Under the pieces are notes generated by a model. The model was not told where the DNA came from, made no database searches, and saw only the letters and a program-made list of their open reading frames with translations. Position numbers and translations under genes: made by a program. 64,000 bases of DNA, taken from a candidate division WWE3 bacterium RIFCSPHIGHO2_01_FULL_40_23 (GTDB taxonomy: Bacteria; Patescibacteriota; WWE3; UBA101185; 2-01-FULL-41-18). The stretch's first letter is position 1, and each line of letters opens with the position of its first letter. The stretch is taken from contig MEUZ01000001.1 in NCBI GenBank assembly GCA_001772615.1, forward strand, positions 56,623 through 120,622, written 5' to 3'. Positions 8,542 to 63,640 of the stretch are shown here, piece by piece.

Positions 8542-8569
8542 TTGAATAATCAACTATAGGTTGTATAAT
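8542..8569 (+). promoter_or_regulatory. Near-consensus sigma70 promoter (TTGAAT-16-TATAAT)
   Basis: tTTGAATaatcaactataggttgTATAATtg, 33 nt upstream of SD AAGGAGAGG and ATG at 8603. Confidence 0.6.
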
Positions 8570-8602
8570 TGTTTGAATTCAACCCTATAAGGAGAGGATG
8601 TC

Positions 8603-8989
8603 ATGAAAACACGACTATGGACTTCAAGGTTCAAGGATGCTTTGGCTGTCCTTGAAGTGAATGGAAGGCAGCAAGGTCCCGACCGAATCATCCGCTGGAT
8701 CGTTGGAGGAGCTTTTTCGCTTATTCCTATCTCGGCCGGTTTGCTTTTGTCGGCTGCTACTGGCCTTCCCTACATAGGATTTTCCCCTGCCACCTTGCTA
8801 ACAGCCCTCTGGGTGGTCCTCCTGTATCACATGGGGAAGAAGCCCTTTGAGGTATTCGCATGGACAGAGTGGCAAGAAGAGGTTGACAAGGCAATCAAGC
8901 TTCCCCTAGCAATTCTTGGAAGTATTGAGCTCTCCACACTCTTCGTGACCTTTTCTGTGGTTCTTGCGGCCATCCAGCTGTTGTTCTAA
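8603..8989 (+). CDS. Hypothetical small membrane protein (128 aa, about 3 TM), GC-richer than surroundings
   Basis: SD aaggagaggatgtcATG; hydrophobic segments IVGGAFSLIPISAGLLLSAATGL, LLTALWVVLLY, LAILGSIELSTLFVTFSVVLAAI. Confidence 0.65.
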   Translation: MKTRLWTSRFKDALAVLEVNGRQQGPDRIIRWIVGGAFSLIPISAGLLLSAATGLPYIGFSPATLLTALWVVLLYHMGKKPFEVFAWTEWQEEVDKAIKLPLAILGSIELSTLFVTFSVVLAAIQLLF

Positions 8990-9127
8990 AACCTTGTGGT
9001 GCGCAGATACCCTCCCCTGCGCACCCCATCTTTTCCCCTGTTTCAAAACCAACGTCCAATTTGAATTTTTACGACTTCGTATTACAATGAACCCCTGAAG
9101 AAAGAAATAAACAAAAGGAGAAACGGC

Positions 9128-9504
9128 ATGAGTATCCTAACAATTGGATCAACCGAATGGCTTGAAGCCATTTGCAAAGTCCTTGGAGACTTCTTGGTAG
9201 GTATGGAGCTGCATGATGAAAGTGAATTAGTGTTTTCTAACCCTCCGGTACAGATCGCGTTCATCTGCACGGAGAACGTTCAGCCTGAAGTGGTGAGACA
9301 AGCGTCCAGGTCTTTCGGATTCAGAATGCAGGAATACGCATAAGAAACGGCAAGGACGTTACGGCGCTGATTTTTGACGTCTACGACCCACCGTATCCAA
9401 CAGAGGGCAAGATCAGAGAGACTGCGGAAAAATTCGGCTTAACCGCTACGGGAGATCTCGCTTTAAGAGAGTATTGGTTTGGTGTCTACTCTCCCCAGCT
9501 TTAA
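9128..9504 (+). pseudogene. Pseudo-receiver (CheY-like fold, no phospho-acceptor Asp pair) small protein, apparently frameshifted near 9320-9345; paralog of 52173..52514
   Basis: Frame-2 ORF 9128..9343 (MSILTIGSTEWLEAICKVLGD...HDESELVFSNPPVQIAFICTE) aligns with N-terminal 60 aa of 52173 protein; the +1 frame continues open to TAA at 9502-9504 (..ALIFDVYDPP..REYWFGVYSP) and aligns with the C-terminus of the paralog; terminator follows at 9516. Confidence 0.5.
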
Positions 9505-9515
9505 AACACACTGTC

Positions 9516-9550
9516 AAGTCCCATGAATGCCCCATGGGACTTTTACTCTT
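9516..9550 (+). terminator. Rho-independent terminator
   Basis: AAGTCCCATG-aatgccc-CATGGGACTT followed by TTTACTCTT. Confidence 0.6.
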
Positions 9551-9737
9551 CGTTAGCTCGCACACAAGTAGTCAAATCAGACTTAGCTTCATATGAGAAT
9601 GATCAAAACACTAAAACCCAAGCAAGGCTTTCCTGATTGACTCTAAAGAATTAAATTTGCCGCCGGGAAGCTCCCACATCCCCCCATACATTTCATCTGG
9701 AACTCTTCGCACGCGCAAATGGTATGATACAAAAGTT

Positions 9738-61438: not shown

Positions 61439-61816
61439 TTAGTCAAAAAATATCTGCTTGTCAAAGAATAGCTTTAACCACCTGTTTAAGTTGCTTTCTT
61501 CCTTTTGGACCACACCTGCCTCTCCCTTAAGCTCACCCTTTACCTCCGGCTCTGACCCTGAAACAGGTATTAAAAGTTTTTCACCCGGCTTAACAAAATT
61601 GAGCTTGTTTCTTGCCTCCTCCTCAACAAACTGGTCACTGCTCTTATAGGTATACTCCTTTTTTAACTCATCATTCTCTTTGCGTTTAGCCTCAAGGTCC
61701 GACTTAAGCTCATCAAGCCTCTTACTGCTCCCATAAATTTCAAGCGTAGTTTTGGTAATATTATAGGTTGCAAGGATTAGCAAGCCCGATAGTACAATGA
61801 ATTTAAATTTAGACAT
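61439..61816 (-). CDS. FtsB/DivIC-like septum formation initiator (TM + coiled coil)
   Basis: N-terminal TM FKFIVLSGLLILATY then coiled-coil LDELKSDLEAKRKENDELKKEY. Confidence 0.5.
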   Translation of the reverse strand: MSKFKFIVLSGLLILATYNITKTTLEIYGSSKRLDELKSDLEAKRKENDELKKEYTYKSSDQFVEEEARNKLNFVKPGEKLLIPVSGSEPEVKGELKGEAGVVQKEESNLNRWLKLFFDKQIFFD

Positions 61817-61929
61817 AATAAATTAACTAAAAAAGAGTCTCTAAAAGCCCCATAATATTAATTGACAGTGTAAACCATAAATGATAACCTAGCCCTATAA
61901 TACTGAATTATTGAAAGGCTAACTTAACC

Positions 61930-62793
61930 ATGATCCCGCTAAAAACGGCTCATACAAACTTTGTGGAGCACCTGCAAAAAAACAAGCGTTCCGACGCCAC
62001 TATTATAGCCTATGGCAAAGACATAGAACAGCTTTCGGAATTTCTTTATAAAAAGGGCAGAAACCTCGTGCATGAAGTTACGCTTGAGGACCTTAAAGAT
62101 TTCATGAAAAAGCTTTTAAATGAGAGTTTTACCCTCAAAACTATCTCAAGAAAGACCAATTCCACTAAAACCTTTTTTAAATACCTTAAAGTTGAGGGCT
62201 ACATTGAAACTGACCCTGCAACTGACCTTACGCATCCAAAAATCAGCCCCAAGGCACCAAGGATCCTTTCCAAAGTTGAATACAGAGCGCTGCGCGATGC
62301 CTGCAAAAACGACAAAAGGACTCTTGCGATCGTTGAGCTTTTGCTTCAAACGGGGATAAGGATAGGTGAACTTGCAAAGCTTAGAACAGAGGACGTTGCG
62401 TTTGGAAACCCGGGGAGTCTAAAAGTACCTCCACTTGGAACTCATCTTGGAAGGGAAGTCCCACTTAATCAAGCCGCTCAAAAAGCCATCAAGGACTACC
62501 TTGATATAAGAGGCGAGGTTAAATCCGGCCATTTGTTTACTACTAAAAATAGCAACCCTCTTCTTGTGAGAAATATCAGGGCAACTATAGACAGATACTA
62601 CAGGCTTGGCGGTATTGAACACGCAAAAGTCAATGACCTTCGCCATACTTTTGTCGCCCACCATTTAAGGGAAGGGGCAAGGCTTGATCTTATTTCAAAA
62701 CTTGCCGGACATAAGAGGATTTCAACGACCGAAAAATACCTGGAATACATTGAAAGAAGCGAAGAAGAAAAAACCGAGCTTTCAGAACTTTAA
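61930..62793 (+). CDS. Tyrosine site-specific recombinase (XerC/XerD-like integrase family)
   Basis: N-terminal SAM-like core-binding domain; catalytic R...HxxR...Y: LRHTFVAHHL, GHKRISTTEKYLEY. Confidence 0.8.
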   Translation: MIPLKTAHTNFVEHLQKNKRSDATIIAYGKDIEQLSEFLYKKGRNLVHEVTLEDLKDFMKKLLNESFTLKTISRKTNSTKTFFKYLKVEGYIETDPATDLTHPKISPKAPRILSKVEYRALRDACKNDKRTLAIVELLLQTGIRIGELAKLRTEDVAFGNPGSLKVPPLGTHLGREVPLNQAAQKAIKDYLDIRGEVKSGHLFTTKNSNPLLVRNIRATIDRYYRLGGIEHAKVNDLRHTFVAHHLREGARLDLISKLAGHKRISTTEKYLEYIERSEEEKTELSEL

Positions 62794-62880
62794 TTTTTCA
62801 TATCCCATTTTCAAAACAAAGTGACAGAAATTTCCGATTGATCTAGGATATGGGTTAGTCAAAGAGATAAGGAGAGGAAC

Positions 62881-63207
62881 ATGAAACATCACCGTCACCA
62901 CACGCCTGCTCCAATTACCAAGCATTTGAGGGCAGTGGTCGCAAGTGACCTTGAGGAAGCAAAGCAGAAACTGGAAGAGGGTGCTGACATTGCTGTTTTC
63001 CAAAACAAGTATACTGGCGTCTACCTGCTTTTTAAAAACAGCGATGTGTTTGATGAGGTAGTGCAGTATGCATCACCGCACTGGAGAACGCCGCCTGACA
63101 TTATCGGTAGAAAGGCAATTAAAACCGAGTATTTCGTCATGAGTGAGGCTCTGCGATTCCTTGAGGACCTGGGCATTGTTGAGCTCATAAAGAAAGAAGA
63201 GGCATAA
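62881..63207 (+). CDS. Hypothetical small protein (108 aa), GC-richer
   Basis: SD AAGGAGAGGaacATG; His-rich N-terminus MKHHRHH. Confidence 0.55.
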   Translation: MKHHRHHTPAPITKHLRAVVASDLEEAKQKLEEGADIAVFQNKYTGVYLLFKNSDVFDEVVQYASPHWRTPPDIIGRKAIKTEYFVMSEALRFLEDLGIVELIKKEEA

Positions 63208-63220
63208 AATTCCAAACAAA

Positions 63221-63266
63221 GCAAAACGCCCGATTAAGCTTGTAGCTTCCCCGGGCGTTTCAAAAT
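63221..63266. terminator. Bidirectional rho-independent terminator between convergent genes
   Basis: AAACGCCCG-attaagcttgtagcttccc-CGGGCGTTT with U-runs on both strands. Confidence 0.6.
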
Positions 63267-63640
63267 TACTTCCTTCCACAGTGAATGCAGAGGCCCTTGG
63301 CGTCCCGCTCGTTTTTTTGGTGATCACCCTCCCCCCAACAACTAGTTTTATCGGGGTATTTGTACTCTGGAATTTTCTCTTCAAATGACAGTCCCAACTT
63401 TGCTGCAACTCCCTTGAGCAAGCCGGCAATGTTAAAATTGGGATAAGCATTCTTAAGAACTTCCAGCATGCGAGCAATAACCTCCACCGGGGTGTTACCG
63501 CTTAGGGTAGTTTCCCCTGAAGGTGTCTTAATTACCACAATAATTTGAAGATTGGCTAGATCGCCAACAACATCTCCTCCAATACTAACGTTCCCTTCCC
63601 CCGCCGTAATGTTAACTCCTGCGGACATCTTAGCCTCCAT
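63266..63640 (-). CDS. Hypothetical protein (124 aa), GC-richer, C-terminal CxxC
   Basis: Gly-rich N-terminus, CIHCGRK at C-terminus. Confidence 0.5.
   Translation of the reverse strand: MEAKMSAGVNITAGEGNVSIGGDVVGDLANLQIIVVIKTPSGETTLSGNTPVEVIARMLEVLKNAYPNFNIAGLLKGVAAKLGLSFEEKIPEYKYPDKTSCWGEGDHQKNERDAKGLCIHCGRK

Follow-up and report, generated by a model that had tools for sequence, protein, structure and literature searches.

Small GC-rich genes led by Shine-Dalgarno sequences, set among housekeeping genes with leaderless-type starts, as probable recent gains in a candidate division WWE3 bacterium

We analyzed a stretch of 64,000 nucleotides (nt), hereafter the window, of chromosomal DNA from the groundwater organism candidate division WWE3 bacterium RIFCSPHIGHO2_01_FULL_40_23, a member of the Candidate Phyla Radiation (CPR). 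At the junctions between its conserved housekeeping units lie at least 16 small genes (63-168 aa) of one build, rich in guanine plus cytosine (GC) and led by Shine-Dalgarno (SD) sequences. We consider it probable that these units are recent lineage-specific gains, resembling the moron modules of phages but placed in a chromosome whose core genes have leaderless-type starts. Horizontal acquisition from a GC-richer source is their most likely origin. The gene table combines public gene calls with our own scoring of open reading frames (ORFs). The initial annotation of this DNA had listed 12 such ORFs, numbered C1 to C12 here. The observation proved real, but the list had to be amended: C2 has two frames, the best ORF of C9 lies in another frame, C11 more likely starts at 63628 than at 63640, C12 ends at 64034, outside the window, and four units (of 104, 93, 98 and 168 aa) had been overlooked. 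Coordinates and signals are collected in Table 1.

The strongest evidence for gain comes from the gene order of related WWE3 loci. These were retrieved with the FBA gene as anchor and then with an alignment of the 5'-3' exonuclease; as a single query the exonuclease protein found nothing in the GTDB representative genomes, and the three-sequence alignment found two relatives. The loci are L014 (FBA 78% identical), L015/L017 (72%), L016 (71%), L018, L177 (64%) and L178 (58%). The core order runs from DNA ligase through LGT, DsbA, RpiB, Rpe, LOG, TktN, PrcB, TktC, PfkB, FBA, a Zn-ribbon gene, 2-hydroxyacid dehydrogenase, VIT1, Grx-TrxR, a response regulator, HhH-GPD, in some loci a signal peptidase, the 5'-3' exonuclease, FtsH, a TrpRS/TyrRS-family synthetase, two tRNA-Met genes and DivIC to Xer. 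It is kept at 45-81% protein identity in L014, L015/L017, L016 and L018 (tblastn), and also, judging from gene calls and Pfam families, in L177 and L178. Synteny is lost after Xer, and the comparison covers C4 to C9 and the 168-aa unit. An MnmA anchor, searched in JGI metagenomes, gave distant relatives only (best 62% on a 1.7-kb contig).

None of C4 to C9 has a tblastn (E<0.01) or blastn match in L014 to L018, and the gene maps of L177 and L178 have no counterparts of them at the same junctions; no orthologue was therefore found at a syntenic position, in line with the annotation's view of the units as acquired. Many of the junctions are closed in the relatives. PfkB and FBA, which flank C4, are 31 nt apart in L015 and overlap in L177 and L178. 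The HhH-GPD and signal peptidase genes around C6 are separated by 41 nt in L015 and about 105 nt in L018, the signal peptidase and exonuclease genes around C7 by 29 nt in L015 and 9 nt in L018, and the HhH-GPD and exonuclease genes by 15 nt in L178. The two tRNA-Met genes that flank C8 and C9 lie 1979 nt from each other in the window and 88 nt in L018. L015 does not have the 168-aa unit, and the 339-aa and DNA ligase genes that flank this unit are adjacent there. Since the junctions are closed in several independent lineages, gain in the lineage of the window is the parsimonious explanation. Small size is not the cause of the missing homologues, because conservation at 52-65% is seen in two small genes without signals of the candidate type, one of 72 aa and the other a Cys-rich Zn-ribbon gene of 86 aa.

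Non-conservation goes together with composition: in the region covered by relatives it is associated with a GC of at least 0.455 (2 x 2 table with rows 6, 4 and 1, 25; Fisher p=0.0007). The relatives have comparable genes of their own. In each of eight non-conserved small genes without a Pfam match (154 aa in L014; 137 aa in L015; 146, 99 and 110 aa in L016; 83, 73 and 72 aa in L177), the GC exceeds that of the locus by 0.05-0.15 and the SD pairs at -8 kcal/mol or more strongly. Accessory genes of known families (YafQ, SIMPL, VKOR, DsbA) resemble native genes in composition, and their SD pairing is weak or absent. Some junctions hold different small genes in one lineage after another, among them Zn-ribbon/2-hydroxyacid dehydrogenase, HhH-GPD/exonuclease and TrpRS/tRNA/DivIC. 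More precisely, the first of these, next to the 86-aa Zn-ribbon gene, holds C5 in the window, SIMPL in L014, a 197-aa gene in L015 and the 146-aa gene in L016; the second is occupied by C6 and C7, with the signal peptidase between them, in the window, by the genes of 99 and 110 aa in L016 and by three small genes in L177. No similarity was found between small genes that share a junction in different lineages (best z 3.6, for a pair that is not in the same position).

Other gains and inserts occur in the same region. Four genes that the syntenic relatives examined do not have are native-like in GC and lack a strong SD: 57817-59121 (-; 434 aa, no Pfam match), 60628-61302 (-; 224 aa, weak AstE/AspA-like match), 46155-46703 (+; 182 aa) and 31654-32847 (-; 397 aa). 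Not every gained gene thus belongs to the GC-rich class. The S26 signal peptidase (50572-52074, +), unusually long at 500 aa, is present in L015/L017 and L018 and absent from L016, L177 and L178, a distribution that marks this gene itself as a clade-restricted insertion at the HhH-GPD/exonuclease hot spot. At the PfkB-FBA junction the closest relative, L014, has a 342-nt non-coding insert (4381-4722) that is unrelated to C4; its 3' end resembles a tRNA (GGTTCAATTCCCCTCAGGTCCACCA), and a promoter-like site and a terminator come next. The LOG-TktN junction holds GC-rich non-coding DNA in two relatives, 543 nt in L177 (5894-6436) and 1.1 kb of GC 0.45 in L178 (5506-6604), which may be a structured RNA; its equivalent in the window is 317 nt long (39456-39772), with a terminator at 39498-39511.

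The second line of evidence is the way in which translation starts. In ten of the 12 listed ORFs the ATG is preceded, at a distance of 6-10 nt, by AAGGAG, AGGAG or GGAGG, and the duplex energy is close to -9 kcal/mol; the GGAG of C8 pairs less strongly (-6.4) and the annotated GTG start of C9 is weak (-6.9). The mean energy of the duplex with the anti-SD is -8.6 kcal/mol in the listed ORFs versus -2.2 kcal/mol in the other genes (p=5e-5), and the 3' end of the 16S rRNA has the canonical CACCUCCUUU tail. The observation in the initial annotation that most neighbouring core genes have no clear SD is borne out by these values. What many core genes have in its place is a -10 box. A box with a match of at least 5/6 ends 4-12 nt before the start in 15 of 49 non-candidate genes (mode 6 nt), compared with 3.4% of control internal ATGs (p=6e-11 for the excess in the core), and in 0 of the 15 small GC-rich genes tested. 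Examples are TATAAT-N7-ATG in TktN, TATAAT-N6-ATG in the signal peptidase and TATACT-N6-ATG in the P-type ATPase. The layout recurs at orthologous genes of the related genomes. It suggests that many core genes that come first in their unit are read from leaderless mRNAs, which would explain why they have no SD, and the contrast with the SD-led units would amount to a two-tier architecture of initiation. In the literature searched we found no description of a leaderless organisation in CPR or WWE3.

Promoter-like sites are no more frequent than chance over the window as a whole (30 versus 30.4 expected, 39 versus 36.6 and 35 versus 38.6). A site with a match of at least 9/12 ends 25-80 nt upstream of 10 of the 12 listed ORFs. 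For the interval of 25-70 nt the chance expectation is 0.043 per gene (binomial p of about 1e-12), C9 falling in this interval only if it starts at GTG 60545. In C7 and C12 there is a -10-like box only, without a good -35. Downstream, a hairpin of -12 to -23 kcal/mol with a T-tract follows C1, C2, C3, C5, C7, C8, C9 and C11. C4 has a good hairpin and an interrupted T-tract, C10 has no T-tract on its own strand, the hairpin at 63223-63261 is common to the convergent C10 and C11, and C6 has no terminator. For the 104-aa unit the strength of the downstream hairpin is inconsistent, -18.9 in one scoring versus -6.9 in another. Strong terminators of this type are almost absent among the other genes. 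The initial annotation had given each of the 12 ORFs a promoter, a strong SD and a terminator of its own: as far as sequence predictions go, this holds for most of them, but not for the promoters of C7 and C12, the SD of C8 and of C9 at its annotated start, and the terminators of C4, C6 and C10.

Taken together, these signals outline a module. It would consist of a sigma-70-type promoter, a leader of about 25-75 nt, a near-consensus AAGGAG(A) SD 6-10 nt before the ATG, an ORF whose GC lies about 7-10 points above that of the genome, chiefly through synonymous sites, and in most cases a strong intrinsic terminator. Each small gene would then be an independent transcription unit, monocistronic and translated by the canonical SD/anti-SD route, unlike its leaderless neighbours, and the terminator would prevent read-through from the module into the flanking core genes.

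Composition separates the same genes. Mean GC is 0.48 in the 12 listed ORFs versus 0.40 in the 53 other scored genes (Mann-Whitney p=7e-7), a test that is partly circular on its own because the ORFs had been picked as GC-rich; the tests on signals and synteny are independent of that choice. Pooled GC at the three codon positions (GC1/GC2/GC3) is 0.568/0.388/0.506 in the listed ORFs versus 0.484/0.354/0.371 in the other genes. The largest shift is at synonymous sites (GC3, 0.51 versus 0.37 when rounded), and GC1 and amino-acid usage shift too, with R, W, Q and H raised and K, N and I lowered in the small ORFs. Among two-fold codons, the G-ending share of purine-ending ones is 0.54 in the small ORFs versus 0.345 in the others and the C-ending share 0.49 versus 0.385; this joint rise, larger for the G-ending codons, points to a global shift in composition and away from simple translational selection. 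The GC-richness reported in the initial annotation is thus confirmed, and so is its remark that these stretches open spurious antisense ORFs: four are present, at 21432-21893 (-), 50169-50522 (-), 59577-59915 (+) and 60199-60480 (+), all with negative codon scores.

The units are likely real coding genes. The distance from SD to ATG is canonical, G is more frequent at codon position 1 than at position 2 in every unit, C7 is modelled as a recognizable domain from its single sequence (see below), and public gene callers had called 9 of the 12 listed ORFs; C9 was not called, and the lookups did not cover C1 and C2. In C2 the first frame stops early and overlaps a second one that runs to just before the terminator, which indicates a frameshifted gene; apart from the terminator its 3' part is unstructured (RNA fold z=-0.2). 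In C9 the sole canonical SD with an ATG, at 60514, opens an ORF in a frame other than that of the listed GTG ORF, and the RNA of the unit folds better than shuffled sequences (z=-3.3). C2 and C9 may be decaying or non-coding. Thirteen contigs of the species are 99.9-100% identical and have no single-nucleotide polymorphism in any small unit; the population is clonal and offers no variation from which the ratio of non-synonymous to synonymous changes (dN/dS) among strains could be estimated.

Homology searches place the products outside known families. No unit tested has a match to a Pfam, PHROG, PADLOC or NCBIfam family, and none has an Rfam match at the gathering threshold or at E<=1; non-coding RNA (ncRNA) genes hidden in the GC islands were rejected on this ground, only the C9 unit being ambiguous. 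Units other than C4 and C8 have no match in about 2.2 Mb of fetched DNA of other organisms, nor in family libraries. C4 matches only itself among 5.8 billion protein clusters, and its AlphaFold2 (AF2) model is uninformative, with a predicted local distance difference test (pLDDT) of 54.5. An exhaustive HMMER search with C8 (1.84 billion representatives) returned C8 itself and weak partial matches to FG-GAP repeat proteins, at residues ~58-103 (occasionally 108-140), on units repeated 3-14 times in mostly long proteins. C8 itself has no Pfam match. It is not an FG-GAP beta-propeller: a single stretch aligns, and 163 aa are too few for a propeller. For C7, the single-sequence AF2 model (pLDDT 68, predicted template modelling score (pTM) 0.61) has a (beta-alpha)5 flavodoxin-like fold close to receiver domains (Foldseek TM 0.70-0.79, about 0.75). 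Its beta1 is followed by G-N-P and not by an acidic D-D pair, and the Pfam Response_reg model does not match; without that pair it looks like a pseudo-receiver, and C7 is predicted to be CheY-like. The products of C1 and of the 93-aa and 168-aa units are membrane-like. By analogy, one may guess that the products act at the cell envelope or in the interaction with hosts or phages.

Table 1. Positions and predicted signals of the small units, followed by other features of the window
Feature	Position	Strand	Promoter-like site	SD	Hairpin or terminator	Remarks
C1, 128-aa hydrophobic orphan ORF	8603-8989	+	8542-8569 (TTGAAT-16-TATAAT)	ataAGGAGaggatgtcATG	hairpin 8995-9028, then TCTTTT	GC 0.504
C2, frameshifted small gene	9128-9504	+	9061-9088	aaAAGGAGaaacggcATG	9516-9542	frame A 9128-9343 (71 aa); second frame 9289-9504
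C3, 78-aa orphan ORF	21448-21684	+	21390-21417	caAGGAGaggactATG	21696-21730 (-20.3 kcal/mol)	in public gene calls, no Pfam match
C4, 89-aa strict ORFan, PfkB-FBA junction	43182-43451	+	43116-43144	gaAAGGAGaacaaATG	hairpin 43476-43504	T-tract interrupted
C5, 99-aa orphan ORF	44761-45060	-	45114-45086	tgAAAGGAGaaataggctATG	44750-44724 (12-bp stem)	
C6, 79-aa orphan ORF	50278-50517	+	50186-50213 (TTGACG-16-TAAAAT)	gAGAGGAGaaaaagATG	none convincing	
C7, 113-aa orphan by sequence	52173-52514	+	-10-like box only	taAAGGAGagaaggtATG	52526-52551	predicted CheY-like pseudo-receiver
C8, 163-aa ORF	59544-60035	-	60099-60072 (TTTACA-16-TATAAT, 11/12)	ctGGAGagagtgATG	59538-59504	FG-GAP-like repeat fragment at residues ~58-103
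C9 unit, ambiguous coding frame	60150-60622	-	60622-60594 (TTGACC-17-TATTAT with TG)		60176-60153	candidate frames: GTG ORF 60180-60545 (121 aa); SD+ATG 60514 (60323-60514, 63 aa); GTG 60449 (89 aa)
C10, 108-aa orphan ORF	62881-63207	+	62821-62849	atAAGGAGaggaacATG		
C11, 120-aa orphan ORF	63266-63628	-	63688-63660	aatGGAGGctaagATG	63261-63223 (-23 kcal/mol)	earlier start 63640 is an upstream ATG
C12, 88-aa orphan ORF	63768-64000 (ends 64034, beyond window)	+	-10-like TACAAT ~31 nt upstream	gaAAGGAGacagagcATG		
Additional unit, 104-aa ORF	7881-8195	-		gaAAGGAGGgcaagATG		GC 0.483
Additional unit, 93-aa basic membrane-like ORF	14439-14720	-		aaAAGGAGatgaagacATG	14436-14394	GC 0.479
Additional unit, 98-aa ORF	14885-15181	-		gaAAGGAGtttgagtgATG	14869-14837	GC 0.451
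Additional unit, 168-aa ORF	31089-31595	-		tgAAAGGAGaaggaaagATG	31062-31031	GC 0.49, GC3 0.56; start moved to ATG 31595; hydrophobic N- and C-terminal segments
FBA start, leaderless-type	43526-43550	+	TGTTAAACT, ending 8 nt upstream	none		TAAACT-N8-ATG at looser 4/6 match; layout shared with 15 or more further core genes
5S rRNA gene	864-980					
23S rRNA gene	2962-6041					
16S rRNA gene	11675-14206	-				with ~1 kb insertion
LAGLIDADG_2 homing endonuclease ORF in 16S insertion	12469-13227	-				

The initial annotation had suggested that the units are horizontally acquired or selfish cargo. The former part fits accessory genes that were recently gained and have self-contained expression signals; the selfish or mobile part found no support, as there are no repeats above chance, no paralogy and no phage, defence, toxin-antitoxin or transposase families. 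For acquisition from the host, which the annotation had named as a possibility, no backing was obtained, since no unit yielded a donor sequence. The direct and inverted repeats that flank the units are at chance level, no scars of transposons or integrons stand out above chance, and the only recombinase near the units is the conserved Xer gene. All-against-all BLASTP and blastn revealed no paralogy or shared DNA among units, which rules against a paralogous family or a repeated cassette. The -35 regions of C1 and C2 have the 10-mer CAATTTGAAT in common (8542-8551, 9061-9070), a match that is borderline against chance (null 95th percentile 9, maximum 11). A defence or toxin-antitoxin function was rejected, PADLOC and NCBIfam being negative: a 20.6-bit match of C4 against a 245-bit cutoff is noise, and most units are single genes. 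A tRNA-targeting island was also considered for C8 and C9, and rejected: the two tRNA-Met genes encode distinct tRNAs, each of which the relatives also have, and so do not represent a duplicated attachment site. As for phages, the units have no PHROG matches, and no relatives of C7, C8 and C11 were found in IMG/VR by a scan for exact 8-mers, which is a weak test.

Several observations weigh against recent gain by horizontal transfer. The searches yielded neither a donor nor a homologue of any unit, so that transfer is deduced from composition and presence/absence only, and the units bear no insertion scars, recombinases or repeats. The search of very large protein databases covered C4 and C8, and the synteny comparison C4 to C9 and the 168-aa unit. 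Promoters, transcription start sites and terminators are predictions from sequence, as is the leaderless status of the core genes. The amino-acid usage of the small ORFs is partly random-like, with W enriched 2.8-fold and C, H and R also raised. The units are GC-richer than the genome, the opposite of classical ORFans, which sits badly with a simple transfer. Finally, over five genomes the GC of the orphans seems to follow that of the recipient genome at a roughly constant offset; a common external donor pool fits this poorly, and an intrinsic cause is hinted at. The GC-richness and the constant offset lend some weight to two rival readings, birth de novo and very rapid evolution.

Such an intrinsic cause leads to a broader and rather unlikely proposal, namely that WWE3 genomes have two channels of expression, a leaderless core and a set of GC-richer orphan micro-genes with fast turnover, always SD-led and each with a terminator of its own, renewed at recurrent junction hot spots in every lineage. 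If the offset and the uniform signals were indeed intrinsic, they would represent a new mode of accessory-gene turnover in ultra-small symbionts, through a dedicated mechanism of capture or generation or through a filter that admits only SD-led, terminated, GC-rich modules. Alternatively, under the same proposal, translation might be partitioned so that the orphan set is switched on or off as a block.

It is unlikely that the units are old native genes evolving too fast to be recognized, for example surface or host-interaction proteins under diversifying selection, with the small genes at the same junctions of relatives as their diverged orthologues. The recurrent presence of small genes at the same junctions in several lineages would fit this, as would the match in position and orientation between the 110-aa gene of L016 and C7, and the fold of C7, which can be recognized in spite of the missing sequence homologues. 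However, L015/L017, L018 and L178 have no gene at the C6 and C7 junctions, the counterparts are dissimilar (the 110-aa protein of L016 is a multi-transmembrane protein and C7 is soluble), and rapid protein change does not explain a GC3 shift of +0.14.

We regard as quite improbable a de novo birth, in which expression-ready spacers gained ORFs from non-coding or out-of-frame DNA, a process that favours GC-richer stretches because these have fewer stop codons. C4, with no homologue anywhere searched and a model of low confidence, would fit this, as would the partly random-like amino-acid usage, the open antisense and alternative frames in the unit stretches and the constant offset of orphan GC from the host genome. 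Yet no precursor is visible: the homologous spacers of relatives are 9-41 nt long and blastn revealed no similarity at the DNA level. In addition, non-coding DNA would be expected to be AT-rich here, not of 46-51% GC, C7 has a complex alpha/beta fold and C8 a known repeat motif, and codon-position periodicity is gene-like in nearly all units.

There is little to recommend the idea that some or all units are structured RNAs or decaying remnants, their ORFs being by-products of GC-rich sequence. In AT-rich genomes, ncRNA genes classically stand out as islands of high GC, and both C9, with its ambiguous, uncalled frame and its stable fold, and the frameshifted C2 could be of this kind, but the Rfam searches were negative for every unit even at the relaxed threshold, in 13 of the 16 units a canonical SD is correctly spaced to the ATG of the longest or near-longest frame, codon periodicity is present and the fold of C7 is confident. 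Hardly credible, finally, is that these are native small genes expressed at very high levels, with GC-rich codons from translational selection: near-consensus SDs, strong promoters and terminators and the enrichment of C-ending codons are what one would then see, but such genes should not be absent from syntenic relatives, the even larger rise of G-ending codons and the shifts in GC1, R over K and W are global and not tRNA-matched, typical well-expressed genes of the window have a GC3 of 0.32-0.43 (FBA 0.33, FtsH 0.37, transketolase subunits 0.43 and 0.32), and translations and Pfam records show no ribosomal protein or other highly expressed gene among the units.

The window has other peculiarities. 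By exact sequence it is found on contigs of groundwater metagenomes, samples from the Rifle aquifer among them. The 5S, 23S and 16S rRNA genes are unlinked, and they occur together with four tRNAs and about 65 protein genes. The 16S gene is 2532 nt long versus 1533 nt in the model; its insert of about 1 kb encodes the LAGLIDADG_2 homing endonuclease (E=3e-37) and has a weak group I intron signal at 12440-12586. The interval from the 3' end of 23S to the 5S gene contains two weakly paralogous ORFs for LAGLIDADG_1 endonucleases (1572-2051 and 2379-2864, -), together with a sub-threshold group I intron match (1412-1736, 37 bits); this stretch (1412-2864, -) falls outside the 23S region aligned by Rfam. 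The rRNA operon is split by about 5 kb of protein genes, which separate the 16S gene from tRNA-Ala and 23S (6421-14206) and comprise an MFS fragment, a radical SAM gene, C2, C1, the 104-aa gene and a 378-aa gene; tRNA-Ile(GAT) (8303-8379) is on the strand opposite to the rRNAs. FtsH (53529-56669, -) has 1046 aa and contains an intein (Pfam Intein_splicing), whereas complete orthologues in relatives have 613-622 aa and are intein-free; one strain contig is set apart by three close substitutions in this gene (55371, 55373, 55380). An intergenic element of about 200-240 nt occurs in three copies of 98-99% identity (17784-18021, 25456-25659, 26875-27127), one of them inverted. It holds a hairpin-rich sub-repeat of 68 nt that recurs at 19801-19868, and a 10-nt indel inside it varies among strain contigs. 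It looks like a miniature inverted-repeat transposable element.

Members of the CPR have tiny genomes in which small hypothetical genes without explanation make up a large share. The small genes described here can be separated from the core by three independent sequence features, translation initiation, composition and the presence of an own terminator. Were this true genome-wide, it would provide a simple rule for telling the inherited core of a CPR genome from its flexible genes, and would document a predicted leaderless expression of the core in a WWE3 lineage. The units would also provide a short list of candidate proteins for interaction with hosts or phages. In gene calling for CPR genomes, errors are easily made over leaderless starts and over reading frames in GC-rich islets, of which C2, C9 and the 168-aa gene are examples.

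The closest known system is the phage moron (Juhala et al. 2000; reviewed in PMC3594210), a piece of additional DNA that separates genes which are otherwise neighbours, has a promoter and a terminator of its own and deviates in GC. The units resemble it in being extra DNA between genes that are adjacent in relatives (C4 to C9 and the 168-aa unit), in holding a single small gene with a predicted promoter and terminator of its own and a GC unlike that of the flanks, and in that several products are small and membrane-like, as is the moron protein gp15 of HK97. Unlike morons, they are not in a prophage; they lie amid housekeeping genes (pentose-phosphate pathway, glycolysis, FtsH, tRNA synthetase, rRNA), with no phage gene nearby and no match to PHROG or viral contigs. 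They work like morons but are not morons, as the defining phage context is lacking.

A second comparison is with bacterial ORFans, or lineage-specific accessory genes, which Daubin and Ochman reportedly treated in 2004 and which classically are AT-richer than the resident genome. The units share with ORFans, whose origin is the subject of PMC1559721, that they are short, restricted to one lineage, without detectable homologue, of atypical composition and set between conserved genes. They differ in being GC-richer, by 0.05-0.15 in the window and four relatives, and in forming a separate class of initiation, SD-led against a leaderless core, with individual terminators. Mixed leaderless and SD-led genomes exist in Deinococcus and the actinobacteria. 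In Mycobacterium tuberculosis, too, the two types of genes are mixed (Cortes et al. 2013, as cited in PMC12641261). The window is similar in having a -10 box a few nt before SD-less starts, alongside SD-led genes and an intact anti-SD; it differs in that the split follows the line between core and recently gained genes, with leaderless status read from the sequence alone.

Integron cassettes, too, are single small ORFs of foreign composition in variable sets, and C10 to C12 adjoin a tyrosine recombinase gene. Cassettes, however, are mostly promoterless, bear attC sites and are arrayed at one attI, whereas the units have a promoter and a terminator, are free of repeats and are scattered; the recombinase beside C10 to C12 is the conserved Xer-type gene of all relatives. 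Compared with these systems, the novelty lies less in the orphans as such than in the clean partition, recurring across a WWE3 clade, between a leaderless-type core and SD-led, terminated orphans.

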